From a virus, in IMG/VR virus record IMGVR_UViG_3300009502_000041, positions 10,271 to 74,270 of that record: a DNA stretch of 64,000 nucleotides. One strand, 5' to 3'. The notes beneath the pieces were generated by a model. The model had not been told where the DNA came from. It saw nothing but the letters and a program-made list of their open reading frames with translations, and made no database searches. Shown here piece by piece: positions 1,451-64,000 of this stretch (position 1 is its first letter; each line of letters starts with the position of its first letter). The translations under genes were made by a program, and so were the position numbers.

Positions 1451-4279
1451 ATGACAGAATTTGTATTTACTTCCCCGGGGGTTAAATTTCGTGAACGTGA
1501 TTTATCATACGTGGTCCGCTCGGTTGGAATAACGACACTTGGTGGTGTTGGTGAAACACTTAAAGGACCAGCCTTTGAGCCTATTTACATTCAAGATAAA
1601 ACACAATTCTCACAAAGATTTGGTGCGCAGAGTGTAGCTAGATTATCCAATGGGAATCCCCAATATCAATTACCTTATGTAGCTAACGCATATTTAGAAG
1701 AATCTAATCAAATGTGGATAACAAGAATATTAGGTTTAAGTGGATATGATGCGGGTAAAGCATGGGCAATTACTTTAGAAGCGGGTGTTGATCCGATAAC
1801 AGTATCTGCAACAACGGCAACAACTTTTACCAATGTGCCGTTTATCAACTATTCATATCTTGGTGTTGGGATACAGGCAGTCGGTAACACTGGTGTGACA
1901 TTTTTAGGGTTTGATAAAATAAGTGCAACTAATTTTACGGGTAGGTCATATAATTTTATTGTCACATCATATACAGCAGCTACAGGTGCTGGTAATGTAA
2001 GTGGTCACACAACAGTATTGGTAGGTACTGAATACACTGCATATAAGAACATGGTATTAGCAAAAGTTAGAAGTAGAGGTACTACTTATGATCACGTAAA
2101 TTTACCAACATCAGTTAAATGGAATATAAAAGATTTAACACTTCCACTTTCAGGCAATACAACCACATTGGGTACGGGTAATTTATTTGGTACATTTAAA
2201 TTGATTACAACAAGTGGTTTAACAACACAATCATATGTGGTATCATTAAATCCTGATGCAAGCAGTTTTTTACCAAACGTAATTGGTTTAGAGTCTAAAG
2301 ATAAAACAACTAAAATTTGGACAGAAGCCGTGTATCCAGACCTAATTAAAAAACTTGATGGTGATGGTGATACATATCCAACAGGATTAACTAAATATGG
2401 AATATCTGGAGTTGCACCATATGCATTTGGGGTTAGTAGTGATTTAATTAAATGTGAATCCAGCTTTTTTGGTAACTATAAAACACAATTTAAAACCCCT
2501 GAAACCCCTTGGATTGTATCACAATTAAAAGGTAATAAAGTAAGTAGATTAGCTAAATTTATTAGTATTTCGGATGGTAATGCAGCAAATCAAGAAATTA
2601 AAGTTAGTATTGCTAACATCAATCCTCTAACATATGAGTTTGATGTGCTTGTTCGTGATTTTAATGATACTGATGATAATGTTAATCTTTTGGAATCATT
2701 TACGAAATGTACAATGATTATTGGACAAAATAATTACATTGGACAGCGCATTGGTACTTCAGATGGTGAATATGACCTTCAAAGTAAATATATTATGGTT
2801 GAGGTAGGTACAGATATTGCGGTAGGGGATTTTCCTGCTGGTTTCGAAGGCTATTCCTTTAATAACTATGCTGTTTCTGCAACCACTACTGGGAATACGG
2901 CAGGAATTATTGCAGGTATTACTCCAAAGATTTTTTACAAAACTCAATACAATACAGATGAAAGAGTAAAAAAAGTATATTTAGGTATTTCTGAAAATGC
3001 TTATGATGCATCCAATGTTATTGGAACTGGGATTAATCAGAATTTCTTTAATTTTAATGGTCAGGAAAGTACTGGTAGTCACATTAAAACAATAGGATTT
3101 CACATGGATAAATATGCAACAGGCATTACCGAAAATGGGTATGATTTTGATTGTGGTAATGGTAAATTTCAAGTTGCAGATGATGTTCTTGATCCAACAT
3201 TGACATATTATGACATTAACACAAGAAAATTCACATTAGTCCCTGCGGGCGGTTTTGATGGTTGGGATGTAAATAGGGGTGTTGATGGAGTTGGTTATAC
3301 TCGCTCATATAGTGATAATTATAGCCTTAATAAAATTTGGGACGGGGTTAATCCTAATGGCAGTCCCATGAATGATTTTCAAGCATGGCAAACAGCAATT
3401 AATACTTTCTCAAATCCTGAAGAAGTTACAATTAACGTATTTGTTACACCGGGTATTAATTGGTCAGATCAAAATATTTTAATTCAAAATACAATTGAAA
3501 TGATTGAACAGCAAAGAACCGATACCCTATACGTTATAGATGCGCCAGATATTGACATTCCCGTGACAATCGGTGATGGAGGTAAGTCAGATGTTATAGC
3601 AGCGCAAGGAGTTGTTGATTTAATTAACACATCAAGTATTGATTCAAGCTATTCTTGTACATATTTTCCTTGGATTCAAATGAGGGATACTCAAAATAAT
3701 GTTAATATGTACATTCCACCAACAGGTGAAGTTGTAAAAGCAATGGCATTTACTGATAATACTTCATTTCCTTGGTTTGCTCCAGCTGGTTTAAATCGTG
3801 GTGTAACAGGTGCAAGAAAATCTAAATATAAATTATCACTTGAGGCTCGTGATATTCTTTATGCGGGTAGAATTAATCCAATGGCTGACTTTGCTGATTC
3901 TGGAACTGCAATCTTTGGACAAAAAACACTTCAGGTTAAAGAAAGTGCACTTGACAGAATAAATGTTCGTAGATTATTACTTCAAATTAAAGTACTTATT
4001 GCAAACATTGCAATCAGACTAGTGTTTGAACAAAACGACCAAGCAACTATTGATCAATTTTTAGCTAAAGCAACTCCTGTTCTCGATACAATTAAAAGAG
4101 AAAGGGGATTACAAGATTTTAGAATTAAAATGGATAGTAGTAATAATACACCTGAGACAATGGATAGAAATGAGCTTTATGGCGAAATCTTCTTAAAACC
4201 AACACGTGCAGTTGAATTCATTGGAATTACTTTCACAATAACACCTTCAGGAGCATCATTTGCAGATGTTGGTGCATAA
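1451..4279 (+). CDS. Tail sheath protein (T4 gp18-like)
   Basis: N-terminal SPGV..RERD; C-terminal PWFAPAGLNRG, IFGQKTLQ, LDRINVRRLL, FEQND, KPTRAVEFI sheath motifs. Confidence 0.96.
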   Translation: MTEFVFTSPGVKFRERDLSYVVRSVGITTLGGVGETLKGPAFEPIYIQDKTQFSQRFGAQSVARLSNGNPQYQLPYVANAYLEESNQMWITRILGLSGYDAGKAWAITLEAGVDPITVSATTATTFTNVPFINYSYLGVGIQAVGNTGVTFLGFDKISATNFTGRSYNFIVTSYTAATGAGNVSGHTTVLVGTEYTAYKNMVLAKVRSRGTTYDHVNLPTSVKWNIKDLTLPLSGNTTTLGTGNLFGTFKLITTSGLTTQSYVVSLNPDASSFLPNVIGLESKDKTTKIWTEAVYPDLIKKLDGDGDTYPTGLTKYGISGVAPYAFGVSSDLIKCESSFFGNYKTQFKTPETPWIVSQLKGNKVSRLAKFISISDGNAANQEIKVSIANINPLTYEFDVLVRDFNDTDDNVNLLESFTKCTMIIGQNNYIGQRIGTSDGEYDLQSKYIMVEVGTDIAVGDFPAGFEGYSFNNYAVSATTTGNTAGIIAGITPKIFYKTQYNTDERVKKVYLGISENAYDASNVIGTGINQNFFNFNGQESTGSHIKTIGFHMDKYATGITENGYDFDCGNGKFQVADDVLDPTLTYYDINTRKFTLVPAGGFDGWDVNRGVDGVGYTRSYSDNYSLNKIWDGVNPNGSPMNDFQAWQTAINTFSNPEEVTINVFVTPGINWSDQNILIQNTIEMIEQQRTDTLYVIDAPDIDIPVTIGDGGKSDVIAAQGVVDLINTSSIDSSYSCTYFPWIQMRDTQNNVNMYIPPTGEVVKAMAFTDNTSFPWFAPAGLNRGVTGARKSKYKLSLEARDILYAGRINPMADFADSGTAIFGQKTLQVKESALDRINVRRLLLQIKVLIANIAIRLVFEQNDQATIDQFLAKATPVLDTIKRERGLQDFRIKMDSSNNTPETMDRNELYGEIFLKPTRAVEFIGITFTITPSGASFADVGA

Positions 4280-4297
4280 ATAACATCTAATAGATTT

Positions 4298-5775: not shown

Positions 5776-5784
5776 TTATATATT

Positions 5785-12722: not shown

Positions 12723-12749
12723 TATTTAAAATAGATTCAATATATAGTA

Positions 12750-13574
12750 TTATTCCGAAATTATTTGTTTATGAAGTCTTGACACATCAATTGTCCTGTC
12801 GTTCATAATGTTTGCTTCTGTGGTTGCAGTATCAAACCAGAACTTTCTTTCGTTAACTGACATAGTTTTTAAATAATTATCAAAGAGACTATTTTCTCTT
12901 GTTGCAAGGTGTTTATATCCAATTTTAGGTATTGAAAATACTTTACATGCATTATTTAATGCCCTGAGTAAAAATTCATACATGAAGCTTAATTTAATGT
13001 TTGATTTATACCCCCCAAGATTTTCAAATTCCAATTTCTTTATAATTGCACCCGATAATTTAAAATCACTATATTGCTTTAATGCATTTGCATTTAAATA
13101 ACCCATTTCGCCATTTTCGCCCACAAACTGTTGTGCCCACACAGTTTCATTGGTTAATTTAATACCCTCATTTTTTTCATTAACCTCAATCATCATAGTT
13201 AAAAAGATATCAATATTAGGAAATGACTCAATGTATTTATTTGCATTCTTGAAATAAGTGGTACTATACTCATCATCAAATTCAAGTACCGAGAAATATT
13301 CGGTTGTTACAGATTTTACCGCAAGATTTACTTGAGATTGATAATCCGTTTTACCTTCATTTTTGAGATATGTAACATCTGGATGAACATAATTATAAAC
13401 TTTCATTTGTTCTTCAATCTCTGGAGGATATACTATAATCACTTTCGGTAAATTAAGACTTAAGTCTTCATTAACAAGATCTTCTTGTTTAAGTATTGAT
13501 TCAATTGCTTTATTTAGGTAGTTGTTAACCACATCATTATATTCGTGAACTGGAATTATTACTGTAATATTCAT
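12750..13574 (-). CDS. Glycosyltransferase family 2 (GT-A fold)
   Basis: ITVIIPVHE, NLAVKSVTTEYFSVLEFDD, FENLGGY; likely start MNITVII at 13574. Confidence 0.85.
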   Translation of the reverse strand: MNITVIIPVHEYNDVVNNYLNKAIESILKQEDLVNEDLSLNLPKVIIVYPPEIEEQMKVYNYVHPDVTYLKNEGKTDYQSQVNLAVKSVTTEYFSVLEFDDEYSTTYFKNANKYIESFPNIDIFLTMMIEVNEKNEGIKLTNETVWAQQFVGENGEMGYLNANALKQYSDFKLSGAIIKKLEFENLGGYKSNIKLSFMYEFLLRALNNACKVFSIPKIGYKHLATRENSLFDNYLKTMSVNERKFWFDTATTEANIMNDRTIDVSRLHKQIISE

Positions 13575-13596
13575 TTTTATATTTTTTAATTTAAAA

Positions 13597-14739
13597 TTAT
13601 TCTTTTGTTTCTGGTTCAATTGCTTTTTGCATTAAAATTATTCTATCATTAAGAAATCCTTGATAAACTTCAGTTAATTGATTTTCGGCAGCTTCTTGAG
13701 TGTATTTTGCAACCACAACATCCATTGATTCATATAGTTTAGCATCAACATTATCATCTAAGAATTTAATTAAAACCTCACCAACTAACACTGGTAGATC
13801 ATAATAATTATCAGTCCAAACTCCAGCGCCTTCAACAACATTTGTCACTATACCATTTTCATCTCTTTTAACCATAAATTCTGGCATAATATCTGGTTTT
13901 AAACAAATTGGAACTACTCCCGATTTCATGCACTCTAAAGGAAACGTACCAAAAGAAGCAATTCTATCAATCCAAACTGCAGCAAAGTTACCTTGTAATC
14001 TTTTTGCAAAATCAATTCTACGCATTGCCTGTGGCGGTTTGCTCTTTGTAAGCATAGGGTCAAACGTTACCCAACTATATTGTGGATATCTGCTAAAGAA
14101 TAACTTGACTAGTTTTGAAATTTCATTTGCATTTCTACCTATTACAGAAATAACAGGTTTTTGTGGTAATTTTGATTTTTCAAAATAATCTGGAATACCA
14201 ATATTATATGTTTTAATGTTAAACTTATTAGTTCCATAGAATGTTTCAACCCATTCTTTAAGTGTTTGTGAGGTTGTAATAATATCATTAATACCAAAAG
14301 ATTTCCAATCAGTACCCGGGATTAAACTATTCACCATATAATCAACAGATTGCAATAATCCAATTCTTATACATGGCAAATTTTTGGTTTGTTCCATAAC
14401 GTTTGAATATACTTCGGGAATGACCATCACGTCTTCAGGTCCGACCATCAGTTTAGGGTCTGACATTGACATGTGTTTAAAACCCGTTAATTCTTTCTCA
14501 ATCCAAGCGGGAACAGCATAGTCACCCTTTTCAACCAACATAATTACTTCATATCCCATATTTTTTACAACTGTTGCATGGAAATAAATTTCATACACAC
14601 TTGCCACAGGACTTTGTGCTTCGGGTACAACAAATAAAAATTTTGATTTTTTTTCTGCCATTTTACCAAGTGATTCTTTAATTTTCTCAATTTTTTCTAA
14701 TTCAGCCTTTTGAACTTCATTATTTAATACTTCGCTCAT
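13597..14739 (-). CDS. Glycosyltransferase, GT-B/GT4-like
   Basis: IASFGTFPLECMKSGVVPI resembles the GT4 E-x7-E region (FGxxxLEAMxxG). Confidence 0.7.
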   Translation of the reverse strand: MSEVLNNEVQKAELEKIEKIKESLGKMAEKKSKFLFVVPEAQSPVASVYEIYFHATVVKNMGYEVIMLVEKGDYAVPAWIEKELTGFKHMSMSDPKLMVGPEDVMVIPEVYSNVMEQTKNLPCIRIGLLQSVDYMVNSLIPGTDWKSFGINDIITTSQTLKEWVETFYGTNKFNIKTYNIGIPDYFEKSKLPQKPVISVIGRNANEISKLVKLFFSRYPQYSWVTFDPMLTKSKPPQAMRRIDFAKRLQGNFAAVWIDRIASFGTFPLECMKSGVVPICLKPDIMPEFMVKRDENGIVTNVVEGAGVWTDNYYDLPVLVGEVLIKFLDDNVDAKLYESMDVVVAKYTQEAAENQLTEVYQGFLNDRIILMQKAIEPETKE

Positions 14740-27506: not shown

Positions 27507-27855
27507 TGAAATACGATGAAATAGTTAAGCAGTTTCAAAGCAATATTTTTGAAACGTTAACAATAACAGAAGTAGCTTTGTTAAAAAATCTAAAGGTGCT
27601 TATTCTAGCGCATTTAAAAATGGTTGGTTTGATGAAGTTTGTTCACATATGATTATAAAACATAAACCAAAAAATTATTGGAATAAGGAAATGTGCACAA
27701 AAGAAGCGTTAAAATATAACGGCAGATACGAATTTCAAAAAAATTCAATGAGTGCTTATCGTTCGGCAATTTTAAATGGCTGGCTAGATGAGGTTTGTTC
27801 GCATATGGTAATTTCTGAAATCTATTTAAAAACACAAAAGAATAATGAAAGATAA
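27507..27855 (+). pseudogene. Remnant of a repeat-type homing endonuclease (two DNA-binding repeats, no nuclease domain)
   Basis: Frame open from 27553: NRSSFVKKSKGAYSSAFKNGWFDEVCSHM then YWNKEMCTKEALKY..SAY..NGWLDEVCSHM, the same repeat as at 49763. Confidence 0.7.
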
Positions 27856-28537
27856 AATAATAGTAGTTTTCTCTTCACATTTAGGAGAAGAATACGATAA
27901 TAAATTCATTAAGCATATTAGTGATACCATTGGAGTTAAGCATACAGCAATTGCTTACCCCAATTACAATCAATTTAGTTTACCTGAAGTCTACAATCTG
28001 GCAATAAAAGAAAATAATGCCAAAAATGTGATATTTGTGTTCTGTCACAATGATCTAACCATACTCAGCCCTAATTGGGGAAGATTATTACTTACAAAAT
28101 TTAATAGCACTAATTATTCGATTATTGGTGTTGCTGGTACTACATACCTTAACGAAAATGGTGTTTGGTGGCACGATAGATCAACAATGCATGGCGTTGT
28201 TGAACATACCGATGGAACAAACACATGGGTTAATGAATACTCAAAACCACGTGCTGGACATATCACTCCCGTTGTTTTAATTGATGGTTTATTTATGGCT
28301 GTTGATTGTAATAACATTGAACATCAATTTGATGAAGATTTTAAAGGCTTCCACCACTACGATACTTCGTTTTGTTTACCTAATGCAATTGCTGGCGTAA
28401 ACATTGGTGTAACCACCGATATAAGAATTTTACACCAATCAGTGGGTATGACAAATGACCAATGGGAATTAAATAGGATACAATTAGTAGAAAAATATAA
28501 AAACGAATTACCAATTTCAATTAATGATTTTAATTAA
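27845..28537 (+). CDS. Glycosyltransferase, GT2-like
   Basis: SLPEVYN, FVFCHND, GVAG, IDGLFMAV, FDEDFKGFHHYD, HQSVG. Confidence 0.85.
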   Translation: MKDKIIVVFSSHLGEEYDNKFIKHISDTIGVKHTAIAYPNYNQFSLPEVYNLAIKENNAKNVIFVFCHNDLTILSPNWGRLLLTKFNSTNYSIIGVAGTTYLNENGVWWHDRSTMHGVVEHTDGTNTWVNEYSKPRAGHITPVVLIDGLFMAVDCNNIEHQFDEDFKGFHHYDTSFCLPNAIAGVNIGVTTDIRILHQSVGMTNDQWELNRIQLVEKYKNELPISINDFN

Positions 28538-28543
28538 AAATTT

Positions 28544-29176
28544 ATGATTAAAGTAGATAAAATAGATGGCGGATTACCAATAAGCATTATTGTACCTCTA
28601 AGTAAAAGCAGAAAAGACTTTTTTGAGCACATGGTATTACCGCTAATTGAAGCAAATGATGTTAATGAAATTATTGTTAATGATGATGAGGGACGTGCAC
28701 CTAAAAAAAGAAATGCAGGATTTAAAAAATCAACTCAGCCATTCATACTGTTTGTAGATGATGATATTCTACTACCAAGTAATTATGCATCAACATTATA
28801 CAAAACTTTAATGAAAAATCCCGATGTTGATTTTGTATATACTGGGTATAATGGCATTGTGTTACATCCCGAATCACACCCAATAGGAAGAAATTTTCAA
28901 ATTCCACCAATTGAATTTAGTATTAACGCTTTAAGACAAGGAAATTATATTTCGACAATGACATTGATGCGCAGAGAAGTATTTCCAATGTTTGACGAAA
29001 ATTTAAAAAGACTACAAGACTGGGACATGTTTTTAACTATCTGTAAAAATGGTGGTAAAGGCATTTTAGTGCCGAATTTAACCTTTTATGCATTCTACCT
29101 TGATTCGGGTATTACTTCTAATGATAATAGTGAAATTGATGCTCTAAATGCAATAAGAATTAAACATCAAATTTAA
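28544..29176 (+). CDS. Glycosyltransferase family 2
   Basis: ISIIVP, RNAG, ILFVDDD, FDENLKRLQDWDMFL. Confidence 0.92.
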   Translation: MIKVDKIDGGLPISIIVPLSKSRKDFFEHMVLPLIEANDVNEIIVNDDEGRAPKKRNAGFKKSTQPFILFVDDDILLPSNYASTLYKTLMKNPDVDFVYTGYNGIVLHPESHPIGRNFQIPPIEFSINALRQGNYISTMTLMRREVFPMFDENLKRLQDWDMFLTICKNGGKGILVPNLTFYAFYLDSGITSNDNSEIDALNAIRIKHQI

Positions 29177-29188
29177 GTATTTATTTTA

Positions 29189-32511: not shown

Positions 32512-32530
32512 TATATTAAATGTTTATAAT

Positions 32531-33181: not shown

Positions 33182-33203
33182 ACAATTAAATATATATATA
33201 GTT

Positions 33204-33827: not shown

Positions 33828-33828
33828 A

Positions 33829-35785: not shown

Positions 35786-36795
35786 TACTTATTGCCTACG
35801 GGACCCGTCCAGAAATACTTAAAATACAGTCGGTTATAAATGTTTTTGATGAGAATAATGTTCAATGCGTAACATTATTTACTGGTCAACACGCTAATTT
35901 AATTGGTAGACATAATCCAAACTATATAATTGATATTGTTGATATACCTTATGTTAGTAGACTCGATTGTATTGTTAAATCAATAATGGGTTTATTTACA
36001 ACAATAGGTCTCCACCCAGTTAAAACAGATTATGTTTTGGTTCAGGGCGATACTACCACAGCACTTGCTGTTGCTTTAACGGCATTTCATAATGGTATAA
36101 AGGTTATTCATTTAGAAGCTGGATTGCGAACATACGATAATAATAATCCATATCCAGAAGAGGTAAATAGAAAAATGATATCACAAATTGCTGATATTCA
36201 TTTATGTCCAACAGAACACGCAAGATTAAATCTTGTTAGTGAAAACATAACAAAAAATGTATTTGTTGTTGGCAATACGGTAATTGATAATTTATTACCG
36301 TATAAAAGTATGTGTGAATATACAAACAAAATATTGGTTACAATGCATAGACGTGAGAATCATCACTGGTTGGATAAATGGTTTATTGAAATCAACGAAT
36401 TGGCTAAGGATCATCCCGAATATGAATTTATATTACCGATACATCCGAACCCAAATGTGATGAGGTATAAGCATTTATTAACGAACGTAAATGTTATTGA
36501 CCCATTATCATACGATGCAATGCTGAGTTTATTGGTTAAAACAAGACTTGTTATTACTGACAGTGGTGGATTGCAAGAAGAAAGTAGTTTCTTTAATAAA
36601 AAATGTTTAACTTGCAGAATTGTTACAGAAAGACCCGAAGCAATAGGACAGAGCACATTTATGGTTGAAAGTCCATCAGTATTGAAAAAAATATTTGACG
36701 AACATATTGATAATTATGAAATTAATTATGTTTCACCGTTTGGTGACGGACACTCTGCAGAAAAAATACTAAAAATATTAAAGAATATTATATGA
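35782..36795 (+). CDS. wecB: UDP-N-acetylglucosamine 2-epimerase (non-hydrolysing)
   Basis: GTRPE, TGQH, VQGDT, HLEAGLRT, PEEVNR, GNTVID, HRREN, TDSGGLQEE, TERPE, PFGDG. Confidence 0.96.
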   Translation: MILIAYGTRPEILKIQSVINVFDENNVQCVTLFTGQHANLIGRHNPNYIIDIVDIPYVSRLDCIVKSIMGLFTTIGLHPVKTDYVLVQGDTTTALAVALTAFHNGIKVIHLEAGLRTYDNNNPYPEEVNRKMISQIADIHLCPTEHARLNLVSENITKNVFVVGNTVIDNLLPYKSMCEYTNKILVTMHRRENHHWLDKWFIEINELAKDHPEYEFILPIHPNPNVMRYKHLLTNVNVIDPLSYDAMLSLLVKTRLVITDSGGLQEESSFFNKKCLTCRIVTERPEAIGQSTFMVESPSVLKKIFDEHIDNYEINYVSPFGDGHSAEKILKILKNII

Positions 36796-37553
36796 GGAAA
36801 GTACTAGTAATTGGCGATAGCTGTCAGGACATATTTAATTATGGGGTTTGTAATAGATTGTGTCCTGAAGCACCTGTACCTGTTTTTAACCCAACTAAGA
36901 TGATAATAAACGGGGGAATGTCAATCAATGTATTTGAAAATCTTAAATCATTAAAAATTGATTGCGACATTGTAACCAATGATCACAGACCAATAAAAAC
37001 AAGATATGTTGATGAGGTTTCAAACCAAATGTTATTAAGGGTGGACGAAAAGGATGTCGTTAAAAGAATTGAGGAAAAAAGATTAAAATCAATTGACTTT
37101 AGTAAATATTATGCAATTGTAATTAGCGACTATAATAAGGGATTTTTAGATGAAGAAGATATATATAGTATCACCAATTCACATTCATTAACTTTTTTGG
37201 ATACAAAAAAAGAAATTAAAACGTGGGCAATGAACACCAATTTTATTAAAATTAATGAAAATGAATATAATCGAAATTTATTTTATTTTAAAAATCACCA
37301 TACTAAAGACTTAATAGTAACATTAGGCAAGAATGGTGCAATGTTAAATAGAGAAGAAATATTTCCAATTACTGGTAATCATGATATTAAAGATTTGTGT
37401 GGTGCTGGTGATACTTTTTTTGCAGGACTTGTTGCGGATTTCATAAATAATAACGATATTCGCAGTGCAATAGTATTTGCAAATAAATGTGCATCATGGG
37501 CTGTTACACAAAAAGGAGTTTCTGTTATGAATTTAATAAATGAAATAAAATGA
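36792..37553 (+). CDS. hldA: D-glycero-D-manno-heptose-7-phosphate kinase (HldE/RfaE kinase domain, PfkB family)
   Basis: VLVIGD..D...RLCPEAPVPV, KTR, LLRVD, SDYNKG, VTLGKNGA, GAGDTF. Confidence 0.85.
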   Translation: MRKVLVIGDSCQDIFNYGVCNRLCPEAPVPVFNPTKMIINGGMSINVFENLKSLKIDCDIVTNDHRPIKTRYVDEVSNQMLLRVDEKDVVKRIEEKRLKSIDFSKYYAIVISDYNKGFLDEEDIYSITNSHSLTFLDTKKEIKTWAMNTNFIKINENEYNRNLFYFKNHHTKDLIVTLGKNGAMLNREEIFPITGNHDIKDLCGAGDTFFAGLVADFINNNDIRSAIVFANKCASWAVTQKGVSVMNLINEIK

Positions 37554-37840
37554 ATATTTTTGTAGATATCGACAATACCGTTTGTTTAACCAGAGATAGT
37601 GATTACGAGAATTCCGAACCGATTTTCGAAAACATTGCTAAGATTAATAAATTATTTAACGAAGGAAATAATATTGTCTACTATTCGGCAAGGGGAAGGA
37701 GATCAGGGGTCGATTGGACAGAGTTTACAATAAAGCAGTTGCGGGAGTGGAATTGTAAATATAACGACTTGTTTATGAATCATAAACCCGATTATGATTT
37801 GTATATTTGTGACAAAACCAAGAGAATTGAAGAAATTTAA
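37550..37840 (+). CDS. Small HAD phosphatase (capsule-biosynthesis-phosphatase-like)
   Basis: VDIDNTVC, YSARG, KPDYDLYICDK. Confidence 0.75.
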   Translation: MNIFVDIDNTVCLTRDSDYENSEPIFENIAKINKLFNEGNNIVYYSARGRRSGVDWTEFTIKQLREWNCKYNDLFMNHKPDYDLYICDKTKRIEEI

Positions 37841-37850
37841 ATAATTATCA

Positions 37851-38387
37851 TTGAAAAAGATTTACAATTTTACAACAGATAAGAAAGAAATTTTAGAAGT
37901 ATTAGACGTGAGACGAAAATTCGTTAACTACTTTTTTATGTGTTTTCATCCTTGGAGCAAAAAGAAAGCAAAAATTGTTTTCACTAATGGTTGTTTTGAT
38001 TTAATTCATTCTCAACATGTAAATCTTTTAAATAAATCCAAAGAACTTGGATTTTATTTAGTTGTTGGGGTAAATTCAGACAAATCGGTTAAATTGCTTA
38101 AGGGAGAAGATAGACCTATTTTTAATGAAGACGATAGAGCATTTATTCTCTCAAGTTTAGAGGCGGTTGATTGCGTGATAATTTTTGATGATTATTCGGT
38201 GTTAGATTTGATTAAATTCATTAAGCCAGACATTATAACCAAGGGTGATGATTATCAAATAAACCAATTAAATAATGTTGGTGGTGAATTTGTTAAAGAA
38301 TATGGAGGTAAATTAGAAATTATTCCCACAAAAAAGGGAATGGCAACTAGTGATATTATTAATAAAATTATAAAAATTTACAAATGA
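37851..38387 (+). CDS. hldC: Heptose-1-phosphate adenylyltransferase (HldE/RfaE domain II)
   Basis: VFTNGCFDLIHSQH, VVGVNSDKSV..LKG..RP, KPDIITKGDDY, GMATSDII. Confidence 0.88.
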   Translation: MKKIYNFTTDKKEILEVLDVRRKFVNYFFMCFHPWSKKKAKIVFTNGCFDLIHSQHVNLLNKSKELGFYLVVGVNSDKSVKLLKGEDRPIFNEDDRAFILSSLEAVDCVIIFDDYSVLDLIKFIKPDIITKGDDYQINQLNNVGGEFVKEYGGKLEIIPTKKGMATSDIINKIIKIYK

Positions 38388-39019
38388 AAATTGGAAACAT
38401 TATTTATGAAAAAGAATTGGTTAATCATGTTAAAGTAGATTTTGTTAATTATTATAACGAAGCCATTGAATATGATAAACTCGATAAGACTTTACCTACA
38501 TTATGTGTTGGTTGGTCGTTTATGAAGAGTTGTAATGTTGATAATGAAATAATTCAAAACGCAGACATTCTAAAGAAGAAAATAATTGCAAATGAGTTAT
38601 ATTGGGAATGTAGTTTTGAGGAAAGCAAATCGTCTCACATTAAAGGAGTTGGAAGTTTTATAAACCTAATTCCTCAACTTTATTTTCCACCAAAATATCA
38701 ATACATAAATTTAGACCCAGTGTTTTTTCAATTAAAAGATATTGAGGATTTAATGGATGTGATTCCAAAGCACTTTGATGTTTTATATAGGTTTAAAGAC
38801 GAAATGCTTTATATATTATTTCAAAATAAAATATCTGGCATAAATTTAAAAACATATGAATTTTATAAATTTGATATTGAGAATTTATGTAATAGAATTT
38901 CCGAGAGAGCAAATACAATTCACATTGATTTGGATGGTAAAATTCATGAAGATTATTATAAAATTTTACCCAATTTTACCCAACTTAAAAGATATCTAAT
39001 CACATTGTTGACAAAATGA
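38384..39019 (+). CDS. Hypothetical protein
   Basis: ATGA-coupled ORF; LPTLCVGW motif, no family assigned. Confidence 0.75.
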   Translation: MKIGNIIYEKELVNHVKVDFVNYYNEAIEYDKLDKTLPTLCVGWSFMKSCNVDNEIIQNADILKKKIIANELYWECSFEESKSSHIKGVGSFINLIPQLYFPPKYQYINLDPVFFQLKDIEDLMDVIPKHFDVLYRFKDEMLYILFQNKISGINLKTYEFYKFDIENLCNRISERANTIHIDLDGKIHEDYYKILPNFTQLKRYLITLLTK

Positions 39020-42955: not shown

Positions 42956-45900
42956 ATGTCAACATTTCGAAACTATTTTTTAAAGAATAATACTTTAATA
43001 GATAATAATCTAACAAATTCTTCACAGAATCCAGTGTGTGAAATCTCATACGGGACTTATAATAAGCAAGTTAGCAGATTTATTTTTGATGTTGATTTAA
43101 GTAATTTACAAGATAAAATTGCAAATGGTTTTATTAACCCAAATAGAATTGTTAAACATGTATTGCATATGACCAATACAATTAGTGGTGCAGAACAATA
43201 TGTTGGCAAAAAATCGTATTCGTTAAGTATTGATAGAGCAACTAGTTTTAATTTAGAAGTTTTTAATGTTAATGAGGATTGGGATGAAGGGGGTGGTTAT
43301 GATTTTATTTATAATGATAGCCAATTATTGGATTCTACGGTATATCCACAAGCATCAAATTGGTTTAGCAGAAAAACCGCAGATACATGGTTAACGGCTG
43401 GAGCATATTTTAGTGGTAATACTGAAATAATTGGAACACAAAGATTCGAAACTGGTGGTGAGAATCTTGAAATAGATGTTACTGATTATATTAATCGAAG
43501 ATTATTATATGGTAATATTTATACTGGCACTACTAATTATACAGGTACTACTAACTATACTGGTGAAACTACGGGAACTACTGGTTATACAGGAACTACT
43601 GGTTATACAGGAACTACTGGTTATACAGCCACGACATTTGGATTAGGTATTAAGTTCACAGATGTTTATGAACAACTCGATCCTGAATTTAGACAAGCAG
43701 TTGCGTTTTATACAAAACATACAAATACTTTTTATGAACCATACGTAGAGACAATTATTGATGATACAATCACTGACGATAGAAATTATTTTTATTTGGA
43801 TAAAGATAATGATTTATATTTATATGCAAATGCAGGACAGTCACAACAAAATGTTATTGTAAATCAAGTTAATATATATGATAATGAAGATATGTTACTT
43901 GGTAGTTTATCAGGTAACTCAATAGTTAATGTAAGTAAAGGTGTTTATAAAATAACGTTAAACATTGATTCACAATCATATCCAGATGCCGTTATTTTTA
44001 GGGATGAGTGGATTATAACTATTAATAATAAAGAGATCACACATAACGGTGAATTTTATTTAATATCTCAGGATAAATATTTTACCTTTAATCAATCAAA
44101 CCAAATTGATTTTAATAACTATTTTTTCTATTTCTGGGGAATTGGGGAAAAGGAAAATATTAGAGCAGGTGCGGTTAAAAAAATTAAATTAACAATAAAA
44201 GAATTGTATTCAAACCAAGATAGTTTTTTACCATTAGAAATTGAATATCGTTTATTCACAACAGTTGGAAAAAAATACGAAATTGATATAATTCCGTTTA
44301 CTCTTACAAATAGAACTAATACTGGATATGAGTTTAGTCTTGATACTTCGTGGTTAATTCCCCAAGACTATTATTTACAAATTAGAATGAAAAATGGTGA
44401 TTATTATGAAAATAAGCAAACACTATCGTTTACAATTGTAAGTGACGGTATTTTTGGCAATTTATCACATAAAATAACCACAACAAAAGCACCTAAAACA
44501 ACCACCAGTACATCAACAAGTACTAGCACCAGTACCAGTACATCAACAAGCACTAGTACTAGCACCAGTACCAGTACATCTACAAGCACCAGTACATCTA
44601 CAAGTACTAGTACATCTACCAGTACAAGTACCACAACTAGTACAAGCACCACAACTAGTACATCTACTAGTACAAGCACCACAACTAGTAGTACAACCAC
44701 GATAGCGCCAATACTTAATCCATTAACATTGTCTTTTGACAGTATTTTAAACGCTAATTTATTAATTGGTGGGAATTCATCGGATGTTAATGTGTGGAAT
44801 ACATTTTTTGATTTACCCACTAACGGTAATTCGTTTGTAATTGCAACGGTAAGTGGAAATAGTGTAACTTTGCTTGGGGGAAACAATATTCATTTAAGAG
44901 ATTCATTATTCTATGTAAATACTGTTCAAGGTAATACAACTTTAGTATCGATTGTTGATAGTTCATGTATTATTTCATCAGGAAATCAAGGTTTTATGTG
45001 TTGTGTTTCATTAACCACAATAAGTTTACCTTTATTAATTTCGGATAATGGACATTTTCTTTATGGGTGTACTTCCTTAACAACCGTTGATTTACCAAAA
45101 CTGACCAATTCGGGAATATTTGGTTTTGGGTTTTGCACTTCATTAACATCAATTAATTTACCAAGTTTAATTACAACAGGAGATTATTGTTTTTATAATA
45201 GTACTGGTTTATATACTGTTAATTTACCATTTTGTGTTAATTTGGGTAGTACCACTGGAAATGACTATGTATTTGGCGGAATTAGTGGAAGAGCTATTAC
45301 ACTTTCCGTTCCTCCAGCACTAATGACGTGTAATAATGGAAATCCAGATGGAGATATACAAGATTTCCTGTTTAATAATAATTCATCAATAATTTCCCCA
45401 GTAATATCTTTAAGTTTTAATAATATTACAAATGCCGATTTATTAATTGGAGGGAGTTCGTTAGATGTTAATGTTTGGAATACATTTTTTGATTTACCAA
45501 ATAATGGAAATCCTTTTATTTCTGTGAGTGTTAGTGGAAACACTGTTGAATTATTTGGAGGAGAAGGTATTTTTCTTAAAGATTCATTATTTGATGATGC
45601 TGGAAGATATGGAACGAATTTATTATCTTTTATAGATTATGGAAGTATTATGAGCACTGGTTATGATTGTTTTGGGGCTGATAATAATGGGGGATGTCCT
45701 AATTTAATCACAGTGGTTCTACCAAGTGTTGCAACACTTGGTAATTATTGTTTTTTGGGGTGTTTTTCCTTAACAACCGTTGATTTACCAAGTTTGATTG
45801 TCGCAGGTCAAGGGAGTTTCCAACAATGTTCAAGTTTAATATCTATTAATTTTCCAAGTTTAATTAATATTAAAGACTATTGTTTTTATGGTTGTACATC

Positions 45901-55934: not shown

Positions 55935-57089
55935 ATGGGCAATTTTTTTGCACAGCCAAATTTAGATAATCTTCAATTTAAACAATTGACTAGTAGTGAA
56001 TTAAAGTTATGTGGTCAAACCAAAATAGCTACAACAAGCGGATTAACTTTAAGTAATGGTGTTGGTGGTTATGTACCAATTATTGCAACTGGTGGGACTA
56101 ATAATAAGGTATTAACGTATCTTAATGGTAATATTGTACTTCGACCTACAACTGGTGGTGGTAACATGGTTTATACTGGTGCATCACCTACAACATGTAC
56201 TGTTGGTGGGTTACCTGCTGGTTGTGCAATATATAATCAATCAATATCGACAATTCTTGAACAAATTTTAGTACCAACAATTAATCCAGTTGTGACAGGA
56301 CCTGTCAACAGTTCATTTACGCTTTCTCCGCCAACAACAATATATGAAGTAGGTACATGTGTGACAAATATTTGTGCAACATCTTGTTTTAGTAGGGGTA
56401 GTGTAGCTCCACAATATAATGGTGGTTCTCCATATAGAAGTGGTTTGCCGAATACGTATAATTATATTCAATTGGGGGGTATTTGTGCAGCGACAAATTC
56501 AACTGCGTTATGTAATTGTTATTTATTTACACCATCTAAGATTCAAGTTGGTAATAATGTTGTTTCTACATCCATAACGTATTCTTCTGGTAGTACACCA
56601 GTGTATAATAGTGCTTGCAGTGTTTGGCTTACCGCACTACCCTCTGGAACAACAAGCCCTTCATTATCTTACACTATTTGTGGTCTATATCCTTATTATT
56701 GGGGAAACATAGCCAGTGGAGGGTCTCCTGCAGGTGGTAATAGACCATTAATAAATAAATATTTGGTAACTGGCGGAACTAAGGTGGTAGATTTTAGTTC
56801 TGATTTATTATTAATTAATTTTAATAGCACTTCTGATGATTACATTTGGTTTGCAATCCCTAGTGAGTCTGCAAGTAAAACAAAATGGTATGTAGATGCG
56901 TTAAATAATGGTATTATTGGTGGTGGTGTAAATGTTGGGGGTAATTTGTTTCCTGATTTTGTTGTTGTAAATGATGTTGCGTCTACAACATGGTCAAGCG
57001 TTATTGGTGGTTCACCTCATTCGTATAAAGTATACGTTAGTAATTATCAAACAGCATTGAATACAATAATTGAATTTAAAAATATTTAA
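55935..57089 (+). CDS. Virion structural protein (fibre-associated, Cys/Thr/Gly-rich)
   Basis: Late motif at 55890; TVGGLPAG, LEQILVP, YPYYWG, YIWFAIP, YKVY motifs seen in phage fibre/Ig-like proteins. Confidence 0.7.
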   Translation: MGNFFAQPNLDNLQFKQLTSSELKLCGQTKIATTSGLTLSNGVGGYVPIIATGGTNNKVLTYLNGNIVLRPTTGGGNMVYTGASPTTCTVGGLPAGCAIYNQSISTILEQILVPTINPVVTGPVNSSFTLSPPTTIYEVGTCVTNICATSCFSRGSVAPQYNGGSPYRSGLPNTYNYIQLGGICAATNSTALCNCYLFTPSKIQVGNNVVSTSITYSSGSTPVYNSACSVWLTALPSGTTSPSLSYTICGLYPYYWGNIASGGSPAGGNRPLINKYLVTGGTKVVDFSSDLLLINFNSTSDDYIWFAIPSESASKTKWYVDALNNGIIGGGVNVGGNLFPDFVVVNDVASTTWSSVIGGSPHSYKVYVSNYQTALNTIIEFKNI

Positions 57090-59942: not shown

Positions 59943-62900
59943 ATGGGTTTTACAACAAAACAAAATTTAGTTAACACTAAACACTGTCAGGAAACTGGAG
60001 GTATGTTAACATTATCTGGAAATACTATAATATCAAGCGGTGGTAGTATTCAATATGCCGTTGATGAAAGCAATACTTTTGGCAAATTTTCAATTGTTGA
60101 TAAAAATTATGTAACAGGATTAACATCCGTTCTTGGAATTCAAACAGCTAATAATGGTTTAACTAAAAATGGATTAAATGTAAGACTTGGTGGTGCATTA
60201 ACAGGAAGCACTTCATTAACAGGTGCTTATACGTTGAATATATGCGGTGGTGCACAATTAAATACAGTATTGGGTTATCAAATAAGTGGAAGTACAATTT
60301 TAAGAACTGCACCAAATGCAATAAGCAGTGTTTATTTAGGTAACAATTCATTTAATTATAACGTTAGTGGTAGTTGTAATATTGGTATTGGCTATGGTAG
60401 TGGATATAATTCATTGGGTAGTGGAAATATATTTTTAGGTAATTGTTCTGGTTATAATGAATTAGGTTCTAATAAGTTATATATCTCCAATTCAAGCAAT
60501 GCTCAACCGTTAATATATGGGGATTTTAGTCAAAATTGTGCAATTATACACGGTGCACTTAAAATAAGTGGAACTACTTCTTTAATAACAATACCAACAA
60601 CAGGATCGATGTCTGATTCGATTTTATTGAGAGCAAACAATGGTGAGATTAAAGAAATTAGTAGCGGTACTTTACTTGGATCAACAATTAGTGGCGTTAC
60701 TAATGGTTTAACAAAAATTGGACGTACTGTTGTGCTTGGTGGTGCATTAACAGGAGATACTACAATTAGTGGTATAAACGTGTTTTCGGTTACAAGTCCT
60801 AGTTATATTGATAATAATCAATACATTAGATTTTGTAAAACACCACCAATAAGGGGATTTTGTGAGGGCAGTTTATATTATGAAAAGAATAAACTAAATT
60901 TTGATAGAGATATTAGTGGTGTTACGCTTCAAGTTGGTGAAGAAACTGTCGTATATGTGTGCAATATTTCTGCAGGAGTAATTTCCAATGGTACTGTTGT
61001 GTATATTTGTGGTGCACAATCAGGATTGCCCACAATTGACAAAGCAATTGCAAGTAATAAATCTCAAGCAGAAAATACTCTTGGTTTAGCAACAGATGAT
61101 ATTTATGTTAATAGTAAGGGTTATGTCACATTAATGGGTCTTGTTAATGATTTAAATACCTCTACTTGGACTGCTGGAACTCCACTATATCTTTCTGACT
61201 CACAATCAGGTTGTTTTACTTGCACACCACCTTCATACCCAAATGAAAAAATGTTGGTGGGTTATGTTACTTATCAGGATTCATTAACTGGTGCAGTGCT
61301 GGTGGGTGTGCGTGATAATACTGAATATGTTGATGATGGTACATTTACAGGATATACTGCAAGTACTTCAAATATTCTTATGGGTAAAATGACGTGCATT
61401 GATTTTGATAGTTATACTGGTGCAACTGCGCCAATTATTAATGGTTTGGTTTCAATGTGTGGATGTGCAATTACTGGTGCAACAAATGGATTGAGTAAAA
61501 CTGGAATACATACAGTTTGTTTGGGTGGGACATTAACTTCTCCTGTAATAATTTCAGGAAATCAAAAATTAACTTTAGGTGATTTAAACGGGGTTGATAT
61601 AAGCACAATAAATGGATGTGACGTAAATCTTAATTCCAAATCAAATGGATCAATATTTATAAAATCACAGTGTAATACTGTTGCAAGTGGTTCTGATTTC
61701 ACTTGTGCAGTAGGGATAGCAATGAGTGTAAATGCTGGTGGGTTTGTTGTTCATGACGATAGATGTACAGTAAATCGAACTGGTATTGTATATGCATCTG
61801 ATTATTCGAGCAATTATGTTAATCGCTCGTTAGTCGATAAAGCATATGTTGATAGCGTTGCAACGGGGTTAAATTCTAAAACAGCCGTATTTGTAGCAAC
61901 AACTGGGAATATTGTGTTAAGCGGTCTTTCAATTGTTGATGGTATTCAAACAACAATTGGTATGAGGATACTTGTTAAAGACGAGTTAACTGGATGGAAA
62001 AATGGAATTTATAGCGCAAATACTGGGAATTGGGGTCGCACCTCAGATTATGATTTTACTTCAAATGGGCAAGTATCAAATGGTGACTTAATTCCTGTAA
62101 GTAGTGGAAACTCTCATGCTAATAGTATTTGGATCATGTCCTCACAAAACCCAATTATAAGTGGTGTGACTAATCTTATATTTACACAGTTTTTACAACA
62201 AATTGGAATTACTGAAGGCAACGGTATTAATGTTATGGCGGTTGGAATAAATAAACAGATTTCTGTTGAATTATATTCTACCAATGCAGGGCTTTGTTTT
62301 AATGGTACTGGTTTACAACAAGATTGGAATGTATATAATAAAGGAATGTGTTATAATTCTGGTAAGGTTGACATTAGAGCAACAACTGGAATTGCTAGTG
62401 GTTCAGAAATTGGAGTTAGAATAAACACTGGAGGTACTAATGTTTTATATGTTGATTCATCGACAGTTGCTAGTTGTTTAGGAACTCCTATAATTACATC
62501 AAATAATGGGTTAACTAAAATCGGATCGAATGTTGTTTTTGGTGGAATGCTAACTGGAAATACCACAATACTTGGTAATAGTAAATCACTTTCGTTTGGT
62601 TCTACAGCATGTAAAATTCAAGATTTTTGTATTAATTACCAAGGAAGTGCGAAAATTTGTGATTATAATTTATCCCCTGTTGGTGTACAATATGGCGCTG
62701 ATTATACTACGTCTTTTATCACTCGTTCACTTGTTGATAAAGGCTATGTTGATGGTAAAGTAATTTCAGGTGTTTTGGCTTGTAATGGTTTAACTAAAGT
62801 AGGTGGAACTGTAATACTTGGTGGTCAACTAACTGGTGATACTCAAATATGGTTAGGTTCAGGTAGGTTATGTTTTAATGATGGTGGACTTAGTTGCGTT

Positions 62901-64000
62901 GATTTATTATCTACTTGTAGTGCTTTGCATTTACAAGATGGTATGATATATATGCAAGGATGTAGCGTTGGTACATGTAATGCTAAAGTTTGTGTTACTA
63001 GTGGTGCAACAATTTCGTTGACAACAAATAATGCAACTTGTGGAATATTATTTACCACATCAGTTTCTGGAATGGGTGCTATTTATGCCTCAGATTATAG
63101 TAATACTTTTGTTAATGAATCATTGGTTACAAAGAGATATGTAACTGGCTTAACTACAACATCTGGTGTTCAAACAGCAAACAATGGTTTAACTAAAATT
63201 GGAAATAATGTTCGTTTAGGCGGCGCATTAACTGGAAACACTTCGTTAACAGGTGTTTATACATTGAATATATGTGGTGGTGCACAATTAAATACCGTAT
63301 TGGGTTATCAAATAAGCGGTAATACAATTTTAAGAACATCCCCGAATAGTATTTCAAACATACTAATTGGTTGTGGTGCAGGAAATAATACTATGACGGG
63401 CACTAATAATGTTGCAATTGGATCTCAATCATTATTATCCAACACTACTGGTTGCAATAACACCGCTAATGGTTATCAAGCATTATGTTCTAATACAACT
63501 GGCTGTAATAACATTACAAACGGTTATCAAGCACTTCGTTCTAATACAACTGGTAGTAATAATACTGCCATTGGTTGTTGTGCGCTTTATGCCAATACTT
63601 GTGGTAATAATAATATTGCCAGTGGTTATAATGCACTATTTTTTAATGCTACTGGTAGTAATAATATTGCCAATGGTTATAAAGCACTTCGTGCTAATAC
63701 AACTGGTAGTAATAATACTGCCATTGGTTGTTGTGCGCTTTATGCAAACACCACTGGCTGTAATAATACAGCTAGTGGTTATCAAGCACTTTATGCAAAT
63801 ACTTGTGGTAAAAATAATATTGCTAGTGGTTATAATGCACTGTTTTTTAATACTACTGGTTGTAATAACACCGCTAATGGTTATTATGCGCTTTATGCAA
63901 ACACCACTGGCTGTAATAATACAGCTAGTGGTTATAAAGCACTTCGTGCTAATACAACTGGTAGTAATAATACTGCCATTGGTTGTTGTGCGCTTTATGC
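59943..64000 (+). CDS. Very large tail fibre protein, partial (>1350 aa); runs off the window end and is absent from the ORF track
   Basis: ATG at 59943 (MGFTTKQNLVNTK...), frame open to the window end; same modules as 57103 plus tandem 14-aa repeats. Confidence 0.88.
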   Translation, partial: MGFTTKQNLVNTKHCQETGGMLTLSGNTIISSGGSIQYAVDESNTFGKFSIVDKNYVTGLTSVLGIQTANNGLTKNGLNVRLGGALTGSTSLTGAYTLNICGGAQLNTVLGYQISGSTILRTAPNAISSVYLGNNSFNYNVSGSCNIGIGYGSGYNSLGSGNIFLGNCSGYNELGSNKLYISNSSNAQPLIYGDFSQNCAIIHGALKISGTTSLITIPTTGSMSDSILLRANNGEIKEISSGTLLGSTISGVTNGLTKIGRTVVLGGALTGDTTISGINVFSVTSPSYIDNNQYIRFCKTPPIRGFCEGSLYYEKNKLNFDRDISGVTLQVGEETVVYVCNISAGVISNGTVVYICGAQSGLPTIDKAIASNKSQAENTLGLATDDIYVNSKGYVTLMGLVNDLNTSTWTAGTPLYLSDSQSGCFTCTPPSYPNEKMLVGYVTYQDSLTGAVLVGVRDNTEYVDDGTFTGYTASTSNILMGKMTCIDFDSYTGATAPIINGLVSMCGCAITGATNGLSKTGIHTVCLGGTLTSPVIISGNQKLTLGDLNGVDISTINGCDVNLNSKSNGSIFIKSQCNTVASGSDFTCAVGIAMSVNAGGFVVHDDRCTVNRTGIVYASDYSSNYVNRSLVDKAYVDSVATGLNSKTAVFVATTGNIVLSGLSIVDGIQTTIGMRILVKDELTGWKNGIYSANTGNWGRTSDYDFTSNGQVSNGDLIPVSSGNSHANSIWIMSSQNPIISGVTNLIFTQFLQQIGITEGNGINVMAVGINKQISVELYSTNAGLCFNGTGLQQDWNVYNKGMCYNSGKVDIRATTGIASGSEIGVRINTGGTNVLYVDSSTVASCLGTPIITSNNGLTKIGSNVVFGGMLTGNTTILGNSKSLSFGSTACKIQDFCINYQGSAKICDYNLSPVGVQYGADYTTSFITRSLVDKGYVDGKVISGVLACNGLTKVGGTVILGGQLTGDTQIWLGSGRLCFNDGGLSCVDLLSTCSALHLQDGMIYMQGCSVGTCNAKVCVTSGATISLTTNNATCGILFTTSVSGMGAIYASDYSNTFVNESLVTKRYVTGLTTTSGVQTANNGLTKIGNNVRLGGALTGNTSLTGVYTLNICGGAQLNTVLGYQISGNTILRTSPNSISNILIGCGAGNNTMTGTNNVAIGSQSLLSNTTGCNNTANGYQALCSNTTGCNNITNGYQALRSNTTGSNNTAIGCCALYANTCGNNNIASGYNALFFNATGSNNIANGYKALRANTTGSNNTAIGCCALYANTTGCNNTASGYQALYANTCGKNNIASGYNALFFNTTGCNNTANGYYALYANTTGCNNTASGYKALRANTTGSNNTAIGCCALY
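63405..64000 (+). repeat. 42-bp coding tandem repeats (14-aa NNTAxGxxALxxNTTG-type beta-helix units)
   Basis: AATACAACTGGTAGTAATAATACTGCCATTGGTTGTTGTGCGCTTTATGC recurs at ~63543, ~63695 and ~63951. Confidence 0.9.

Follow-up and report, generated by a model that had tools for sequence, protein, structure and literature searches.

A hydrophobic-[Ser/Thr]-Gly-x-Thr motif in the tail sheath and fibre proteins of an uncultured myovirus clade: a possible tag for virion O-glycosylation

Background

Virion O-glycosylation of mycobacteriophages was reportedly described by Freeman et al. in Cell Host Microbe in 2023, and in Bacteroidota the O-glycosylation motif is D-[ST]-[AILVMT]. Mycobacteriophage virions are cited in PMC12619734 as glycosylated, the glycans being carried by the C-terminal parts of capsid and tail-tube subunits. 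The same paper, in the parts drawn on here, describes the 'Moraphages', large aquatic phages that are T4-distant myoviruses with predicted Bacteroidota hosts; four of their core gene families are putative glycosyltransferases (GT), and the authors name virion glycosylation as one possible role. Among bacterial enzymes, the soluble GT-A enzyme SgtA of Clostridioides difficile is reported in the available part of PMC7157674 to O-GlcNAcylate Thr or Ser in Gly-x-Thr peptides containing T-G-A-T. The cytoplasmic enzyme TibC, according to the portion of PMC4358343 used here, heptosylates many Ser in short loops (including Asn-Ser-Gly-Gly) of a folded beta-helix adhesin. The subject of this study is a 64,000-nucleotide stretch of uncultured virus DNA (the window; positions 10,271 to 74,270 of IMG/VR record IMGVR_UViG_3300009502_000041), whose tail sheath and fibre proteins carry a recurrent tetrapeptide. 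A first-pass annotation, made from the sequence alone, wrote this tetrapeptide as [S/T]-G-x-[T/S] and took it for the acceptor site of phage glycosyltransferases.

The window makes up 64 kb of a 74-kb contig and has a G+C content of about 30%. Its source is an uncultured myovirus of only distant T4 kinship. Contigs of up to about 365 kb bear homologues of its sheath (50-87% identity), which makes a giant phage probable; one sheath homologue carries the label of a Bacteroidales assembly. Like the Moraphages, it is an uncultured large T4-distant myovirus with GT genes; unlike here, the parts of the Moraphage paper drawn on describe no acceptor motif. A search of literature listings and abstracts brought up no report of a motif of this kind in the virions of phages.

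Excess and shape of the motif

The motif [ST]-G-x-[ST] was searched for in 53 open reading frames (ORFs) of the window, ie five flagged proteins and 48 others (14,781 aa). Proteins without an assigned name are denoted below by their start coordinate (Table 1). In the sheath there are 9 sites against a mean of 2.38 in 2000 composition-preserving shuffles. The corresponding figures are 13 against 6.33 for the 42956 protein, 7 against 2.09 for the 55935 protein (P = 0.005), 16 against 4.46 for the 57103 protein and 22 against 8.29 for the 59943 fibre, and P was 0.0115 or less for each of the five. Pooled, they hold 67 sites where 23.7 (sd 4.7) are expected, a number reached in 0 of 1000 shuffles. 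The remaining 48 ORFs hold 13 sites against 11.5, a number reached in 364 of 1000 shuffles, and one of the 13 is the SGKS of the recombinase. No enrichment was found by the same tests in the large ORFs 20813, 23843 and 40841, in the tail tube or in the baseplate hub. The motif excess in the flagged proteins is thereby confirmed as real, and it is larger than the first-pass annotation had it. Every tetrapeptide listed there is present, by direct count, in the protein named; the 'more than ten' sites of the 57103 protein and the 'many' of the fibre are the 16 and 22 given above, and the comparison with shuffled controls that it proposed comes out in favour of enrichment.

The excess does not depend on how the sequences are shuffled. 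Shuffling within blocks of 12, 20 or 40 residues left the expectation unchanged (24.0 and 23.1 in two of these). Dipeptide-preserving shuffles of the pooled flagged proteins gave an expectation of 31.1 (z = 7.8), and with paralogous copies masked the pooled count was 42 against 16.1 (z = 6.8). Codon usage at the sites varies (position 1 is encoded by ACT, AGT, ACA and others, position 2 by GGA or GGT), so the signal lies at the protein level and a word at the DNA level is rejected. A shared homologous domain as the cause of the motif was ruled out by BLASTP, which found no similarity between the sheath, the 55935 protein, the 42956 protein and the fibres; the earlier statement that the same motif occurs in unrelated proteins therefore holds for the sheath, the 55935 protein and the fibres. 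The single exception is the 57103 and 59943 pair, which are paralogues. Many of the sites of the 59943 fibre lie inside repeated modules, LGGxLTGxT and GYQISGxTILRT, and LTGxT is kept in seven of the eight copies of the former; the parts of this fibre that are not paralogous to the 57103 protein (241 aa) still hold 5 sites against 1.49.

The 42956 protein, which has BspA-type LRR repeats (Pfam PF13306, 2e-43), has to be set apart. Its tandem array is a short run of Gly-x-Thr triplets, the triplet form being confined to aa 207-224, and when the array is collapsed the count falls to 5 against 5.7. Its excess is due to the array alone, so that its inclusion among the tagged proteins, as first annotated, was a repeat artefact. 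Between the N-terminal part and the LRR repeats of this protein there is a linker of about 70 residues that is nearly all Thr/Ser (44480-44701, aa ~509-582). This mucin-like linker could itself bear O-glycans, apart from the motif.

When 100 related three-position patterns were compared, [ST]G.[ST] came first. Permutations of the same composition are near expectation (18 against 23.6 for G[ST].[ST] and 31 against 23.4 for [ST].G[ST]), and [ST]G[ST] occurs 27 times against 24.0 expected. In the flagged proteins, the form ending in Thr is strongly enriched (56 against 12.7), the excess being carried by TG.T (34 against 6.8) and SG.T (22 against 5.8). The form ending in Ser is not (11 against about 11; TG.S 4 against 6.0, SG.S 7 against 5.1). 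The motif as first written, with Thr or Ser at position 4, thus stands for Thr and fails for Ser. Residue ratios were taken from 11 proteins picked for enrichment and describe the shape of the motif, not its significance. Before G.T, Thr is 3.2-fold and Ser 3.6-fold over-represented, and Asn (0.45-fold) and Asp (0.61-fold) are depleted; after [ST]G. the ratio is 4.0 for Thr and 0.92 for Ser. Of 58 sites, 66% have a hydrophobic residue at position -1, compared with 35% in the background, and none has Gly there; Gly directly follows the motif in 3% of them. The true motif is hydrophobic-[S/T]-G-x-T, which is sharper than [ST]-G-x-[ST].

Other acceptor motifs were not enriched in the flagged proteins, namely the Asn-x-Ser/Thr sequon (100 against 107.0 in shuffles), D-[ST]-[AILVMT] (13 against 19.0) and [DE]-x-N-x-[ST]. 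In the families of the sheath and the 55935 protein, [DN]G.T occurs 0.32 and 0.22 times per sequence, compared with 6.2 and 6.5 for [ST]G.T. A generic Asx/ST beta-turn motif was considered and rejected, given the depletion of Asn and Asp before G.T and the lack of an excess in six control phages (see below).

Eight of the nine sheath sites lie in the outer, non-core part of the protein (aa 147-560, roughly nt 1748-3310), in keeping with the first description; the ninth, SGAS at aa 933, lies within the conserved C-terminal domain. The AF2 (AlphaFold2) model of the sheath has a mean predicted local distance difference test score (pLDDT) of 62.8 overall and of about 80-90 for aa 100-345. The model of the 55935 protein has a pLDDT of 85.3, with its sites in coil or at strand edges, and a Foldseek search with it found only a weak likeness to beta-sandwiches of the Ig/FN3 type, none at E <= 0.001. 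Site contexts were taken from the secondary-structure strings of the predicted models. Of 16 modelled sites, about two are in two-residue hairpins (sheath 255 and 933), about three are at the start of a strand or helix, including a helix N-cap (sheath 147 and 311; 55935 protein 279), two are inside strands near their start (sheath 163 and 184) and the rest are in coil. Such mixed contexts argue against one structural role. The surface loops anticipated in the first-pass annotation are borne out in that most sites fall in predicted loops or strand edges; what that placement is worth as evidence is discussed below.

Distribution in relatives and in other phages

The excess recurs throughout the families of the two proteins that were followed. 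Among 116 sheath homologues the mean is 9.73 sites against 2.38 expected (ratio 4.10), and among 120 homologues of the 55935 protein it is 8.03 against 2.39 (ratio 3.35). The sheath sites at aa 147, 234, 557 and 933 are kept in 83, 74, 69 and 113 of the 116 homologues, respectively, and those at aa 184 and 480 turn over, being kept in 11 and 9. In the sheath and 55935 families the motif spans 71 and 75 distinct alignment columns, compared with 40-63 for permutations, and it also has more conserved columns. The motif is maintained with turnover.

Genomes of relatives (G001 and so on) were scanned with simple ORF calls, an enriched ORF being one with P < 0.01. G001 (327 kb) and G002 (365 kb) are near-complete, and their excess is limited to 10-16 ORFs. 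The 16 enriched ORFs of G001 hold 172 sites against 44.3 and its other 305 ORFs 74 against 75.0; for G002 the figures are 100 against 24.8 in 10 enriched ORFs and 72 against 70.5 in the other 351. G005 (266 kb) has two enriched ORFs (22 against 5.2), with 112 sites against 75.7 in the other 244. In G004 (210 kb) there are two small enriched ORFs of two sites each (together 4 against 0.2), the other 207 ORFs hold 33 against 27.4, and overall there is no excess (37 against 27.6). This genome is about 70% complete and its sheath, 44% identical, is without the motif-rich insert. In the sister lineage G006 the sheath is 40% identical yet motif-rich (11 against 3.1).

The enriched ORFs of G001 encode the sheath, proteins of the fibre families and several others that belong to no known family; Pfam and PHROG searches with them matched only fibre families and, once, Peptidase_M78. 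In the same genome the portal (2 against 0.35) and a gp6-like wedge protein (0 against 0.97) are not enriched. A 489-aa ORF that is 53% Ser/Thr has no site where 9.34 are expected, and an 860-aa ORF, used as a beta-rich or Ser/Thr-rich comparison, has 4 against 4.81.

Outside the clade the motif is not in excess. In T4, where 33 proteins were tested, the sheath has 0 sites against 1.29, gp34 1 against 3.27 and gp12 1 against 1.98, and small excesses (2-8 sites) occur only in gp36, gp37, gp24, gp23, gp32 and UvsW. Pooled ratios for annotated large proteins were 1.00 for Flavobacterium phage immuto, 0.81 for Tenacibaculum phage pT24, 1.19 for Microcystis phage Mel-JY01, 1.39 for cyanophage S-CAM4 and 1.63 for pelagiphage HTVC111P; the sheaths of pT24 and Mel-JY01 have 1 site each, against 1.50 and 1.68. 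A fibre domain is shared with a P2-like Ralstonia phage, and no site of the window is kept in the aligned stretch (for example, SGLT is aligned with NGLQ). Equal frequency in outside homologues, named at the outset as evidence against an enzyme-read signal, was thus not found: sheath and fibre proteins of phages beyond the clade are without the motif excess. A tblastn search of isolate phages with the 55935 protein gave no match.

Candidate enzymes

The conserved GT2-family gene at 12750-13619 is separated from the sheath gene by 8.5 kb. It has orthologues in G001, G002, G005, G006, G009 and G010, and was found in all six records of relatives with motif-rich sheaths that were searched whole. 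In the 324-kb G010 this orthologue is the sole match to PF00535. There was no tblastn match to the gene in the non-enriched G004. A scan of viral contigs returned 67 loci, all from close relatives (54-81% identity), and so no independent lineage. The matches in G006, G009 and G010 are listed with one to three TAA/TAG stops inside, yet their open frames roughly equal the match in length.

Its neighbour, at 13597-14739, is probably a GT-B (Glycos_transf_1-like) glycosyltransferase: a feature search of the ESM Atlas, taken as a lead only, places it by PF00534/PF13692 clusters (0.98). It has the distribution of the GT2 gene in G001, G002, G004 and G005 and is present at 26 of the 28 sheath loci that have the GT2 gene. 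A tblastn search of 50,697 isolate phage records with the two enzymes gave no match, and a PDB sequence search with both gave best E-values of 0.083 and 0.14. The pair belongs to a four-gene block (11856-15481, minus strand) that is present in G001, G002 and G005 and missing from G004 by tblastn. In 28 of 51 loci of relatives the block, including the GT2 gene, is syntenic and no more than 10 kb away from the sheath gene, many of the other sheath loci being too short on that side. As far as these sequence comparisons go, the conserved pair and the motif excess go together wherever we looked, but the presence of the pair is confounded with phylogeny. The product of another block gene, 11856-12722, resembles viral clusters labelled as RNA polymerase sigma factor (ESM Atlas, 0.96-0.98; Sigma70_r2 in 21% of one cluster), again as a lead only.

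The larger set of sugar genes at 27845-39019 has a different distribution. The PF13712 enzyme at its edge has tblastn matches of 38-65% identity in G001, G002, G004 and G005, hence also in the non-enriched genome. The island ORFs at 28544-38387 have matches in G001 only, and there only in part; in G002, G004 and G005 no tblastn match was found except to the endonuclease-like ORF 31141-31593. Motif enrichment remains strong in G002 and is weaker in G005, though both are without the island. From these comparisons the island is a variable cassette whose presence does not track the motif. GT2-family matches as such are present in all five large relatives first tested, including G004. The GT clusters that the first-pass annotation had in mind as readers of the motif are therefore not suited to that role; its broader idea of an enzyme-recognition signal fits the data as a signal at the sequence level, with the island genes excepted as reader.

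Other genes of the window

Structural and replication genes were assigned by PHROG and Pfam scans, and large ORFs of the homing- and HNH-endonuclease families are set amid them (Table 1). A DnaB-like helicase ORF (53004-54407) is followed by a separate ORF of 310 aa (54527-55459); the helicase of G001 is a single ORF of 614 aa. Upstream of the window there is a thymidylate synthase gene (contig L217:524-1747, minus strand) whose 407-aa product has an insertion relative to the family model, so that the match is split into two to four stretches. It scores 254.5 bits against a ThyA equivalog cut-off of 108.35, ie as a true ThyA, and so gives no support for glycosylated hydroxymethyl bases in the 74 kb of genome examined.

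Table 1. Coordinates of the window's features, in nucleotides from its first letter, with strand and the matches on which each assignment is based
Feature	Position	Strand	Match or remark
Tail sheath, 942 aa	1451..4279	+	PHROG tail sheath 1.2e-60; Pfam Phage_sheath_1C
Tail tube	5215-5706		0 motif sites
Homing-/HNH-endonuclease-family ORFs, large	5770-7281, 15742-17004, 18970-20577, 49763-51148		
Block genes of no assigned function	11856-12722, 14744-15481	-	No Pfam or NCBIfam match
GT2-family glycosyltransferase, conserved	12750..13619	-	Pfam PF00535, 1.2e-5, over cut-off
Conserved neighbour of the GT2 gene, 380 aa	13597..14739	-	No Pfam or NCBIfam match
Baseplate hub	17849-18778		PHROG/Pfam scan
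Glyco_tranf_2_5 glycosyltransferase	27845..28537	+	Pfam PF13712, 4.2e-26
Variable sugar island	28544..39019	+	Several GT2, GT-D-like, methyltransferase, UDP-GlcNAc 2-epimerase, PfkB kinase, heptose-isomerase-like and cytidylyltransferase-like genes
Island GT2-family ORFs	28544-31110, 35033-35785		
Epimerase, PfkB kinase, heptose-isomerase-like and cytidylyltransferase-like genes	35782-38387		
Tandem array YTGTTN / GTTGYT	43523..43627	+	aa 190-224 of the 42956-47140 protein; 9 overlapping motif matches
384-aa protein of no assigned family	55935..57089	+	Predicted all-beta; 5' of the fibre genes
Fibre or virion structural protein, 936 aa	57103..59913	+	PHROG virion structural, tail spike, tail fibre
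Fibre protein, 1352 aa seen	59943..63998	+	Runs past the window end

Interpretation

An ordered, hydroxyl-specific pattern that is restricted to one clade and to certain of its proteins behaves, in the sequences compared, like a signal under selection. We propose that it marks the outward-facing tail proteins (the outer sheath domains, the beta-sandwich protein and the fibres) and not the enzymes, tube, portal or major capsid protein. The explanation that we rate highest, while giving it rather less than an even chance, is a glycosylation tag read by an enzyme, with O-glycosylation by the conserved pair. A soluble phage enzyme would read the tag in the cytoplasm, in exposed loops of folded or folding virion proteins, and would move a sugar onto the hydroxyl of position 1, which is Ser or Thr with no preference between them. 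Gly at +1 would open access to that hydroxyl, and Thr, not Ser, at +3 together with the hydrophobic residue at -1 would serve as recognition elements. The best candidates for the enzyme would be the GT2 protein 12750-13619 and the GT-B-like protein 13597-14739, near the tail genes, and the variable island 28544-39019 might at most elaborate the glycan in some strains. Precedents are SgtA and TibC, soluble enzymes that modify Ser or Thr beside Gly on exposed parts of folded surface proteins, and the glycosylated virions of mycobacteriophages. The bolder statement, that hydrophobic-[Ser/Thr]-Gly-x-Thr is a true O-glycosylation sequon and that a conserved, clade-specific pair of soluble glycosyltransferases sugar-coats the sheath and fibres of a widespread giant-phage clade, is put forward more tentatively still.

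Several observations weigh against glycosylation by the pair. To our knowledge, cytoplasmic O-glycosyltransferases rarely need a strict four-residue sequon. The glycosyltransferase label of the 13597-14739 protein comes solely from a language-model lead, and the substrate of the conserved enzymes could instead be DNA, lipid or host polysaccharide; genes for DNA modification (Mom-like and QueC-like) are present in G001. The genomes that have the pair all come from a single clade or its sister, so that the association between pair and motif is not independent of phylogeny, and the sole relative without the pair, G004, is also the most distant, the incomplete one and the one whose sheath is without the motif-rich insert. 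The major capsid protein of G001, which presents the largest exposed surface, is not enriched (2 against 0.85). Several sites are conserved as structural residues would be, above all the SGAS at aa 933 of the sheath. Finally, Gly-containing motifs favour loops anyway, so the predicted exposure of the sites does not discriminate.

The main rival would be a lineage-specific structural element, ie a favoured strand start or turn in fast-evolving, beta-rich outer domains that is inherited and re-created by drift and has no enzyme as reader. The residue pattern would then be a buried hydrophobic residue, an exposed Ser/Thr, Gly, any residue and a beta-branched Thr. Every enriched protein for which a model could be made is rich in beta-structure, the preference for Thr over Ser at position 4 suits beta-propensity, and the hydrophobic residues at -1 and +2/+3 suit strand edges. 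Five to six sites per protein are conserved over more than 100 homologues, and the retention of LTGxT in the fibre module (7 of 8 copies) can be read in the same way. Yet Asn and Asp, the usual turn residues before Gly, are depleted at position 1 despite an Asn-rich proteome; the predicted contexts are heterogeneous with few true hairpins; and homologous domains elsewhere have other residues at the same places. No excess is seen in T4 or five other phages, whose sheath, fibre and Ig-like proteins are also beta-rich, and other beta-rich or Ser/Thr-rich proteins of the same genome, such as the 860-aa ORF of G001, are at expectation. On balance we consider a purely structural origin unlikely, though to be taken seriously. 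A tag with a different reader (another modifying enzyme, an assembly chaperone or a surface in direct contact with a host ligand) has in its favour that an ordered, selected and protein-set-specific signal does not specify who reads it, and that the conserved block also contains 11856-12722 and 14744-15481, to which no function is assigned. No kinase, acyltransferase or other such candidate was found in the window by PHROG and Pfam scans, and a binding surface is usually local, not spread over sheath, fibres and a beta-sandwich protein, which makes a reader of this kind improbable.

The two remaining explanations receive little credence. The large cluster at 27845-39019, with at least six GT-family ORFs and sugar-nucleotide genes, would be an obvious source of enzymes for which the motif is the acceptor, and the PF13712 enzyme that lies on its border has counterparts in each of the four relatives compared. 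The island part (28544-38387) is, however, unmatched in the enriched G002 and G005 as in G004, save for one ORF, and is partial in G001; the single PF00535 match of G010 is an orthologue of the 12750-13619 gene; and the PF13712 enzyme is also present in the non-enriched G004. A role for this cluster as the reader is accordingly very unlikely. An artefact, whether of composition, low complexity, repeats or bias at the DNA level, is suggested by the richness of the flagged proteins in Ser, Thr and Gly, by the tandem repeat of the 42956 protein and by the many fibre sites in paralogous modules. Against this, the excess is still there when shuffles are global, local (12-40 aa) or dipeptide-preserving and when repeats are masked, the codons at the sites vary, and the excess recurs in the 116 sheath homologues and in the 120 homologues of the 55935 protein. 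An artefact accounts for the 42956 protein only; it is otherwise not supported, and as a general explanation we regard it as next to negligible.

If an enzyme does read the motif, the decoration of phage tails would follow a testable four-residue code for which two candidate enzymes can already be named. Such a code could account for the way in which large environmental phages mask or tune sheath and fibres, and might be put to use as a portable tag in glyco-engineering. If the motif is a true sequon, it would be the first case of a bacterial virus using a short linear acceptor code for protein glycosylation in the cytoplasm. Were the motif only structural, it would still be an unusually strong, clade-specific signature of exposed virion proteins.

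Comparison with known systems

Asn-x-Ser/Thr and D-[ST]-[AILVMT] are likewise short linear acceptor motifs, but neither is enriched in the flagged proteins. The likeness to SgtA and its target BclA3, as given in the available part of that report, lies in the Gly-x-Thr context and the T-G-A-T peptides, and in form the array of the 42956 protein is likewise a run of Gly-x-Thr triplets. The BclA3 sites are described there as part of a collagen-like triplet repeat with Gly after Thr, whereas in the window Gly follows in 3% of sites and there is no triplet period outside one array. SgtA, by the same source, has a C-terminal tetratricopeptide repeat (TPR) domain. None was found in the glycosyltransferase ORFs of the window at E <= 0.001, nor at E <= 1 for 11856-15481, 27845-28537 and 38384-39019; the only TPR-like match (E = 0.39) is in ORF 11150-11536, which is not a glycosyltransferase.

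With TibC/AAH acting on TibA/AIDA-I, so far as the consulted portion of that work goes, the window shares Ser-Gly loops in a beta-rich protein and, in the island, heptose-nucleotide-like genes. TibC differs in modifying Ser and not Thr and in belonging to a different enzyme family with an iron-finger. The heptosyltransferase family is not among the Pfam and PHROG matches of the 53 ORFs, and conservation across the clade does not extend to the heptose genes. The locus is a member of neither an SgtA-type nor a TibC-type system.

The mycobacteriophage type of system is alike in having phage GT genes close to structural genes, as is the case here for the GT2 gene near the sheath gene, and in the glycosylation of virion proteins in the cytoplasm, which is here only proposed. 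It is unlike in the placement of the sites: the tail tube of the window has none and the G001 capsid shows no enrichment, and the sites are instead dispersed on sheath and fibres. If the motif is indeed a glycosylation tag, phage virion glycosylation would extend past the mycobacteriophages.

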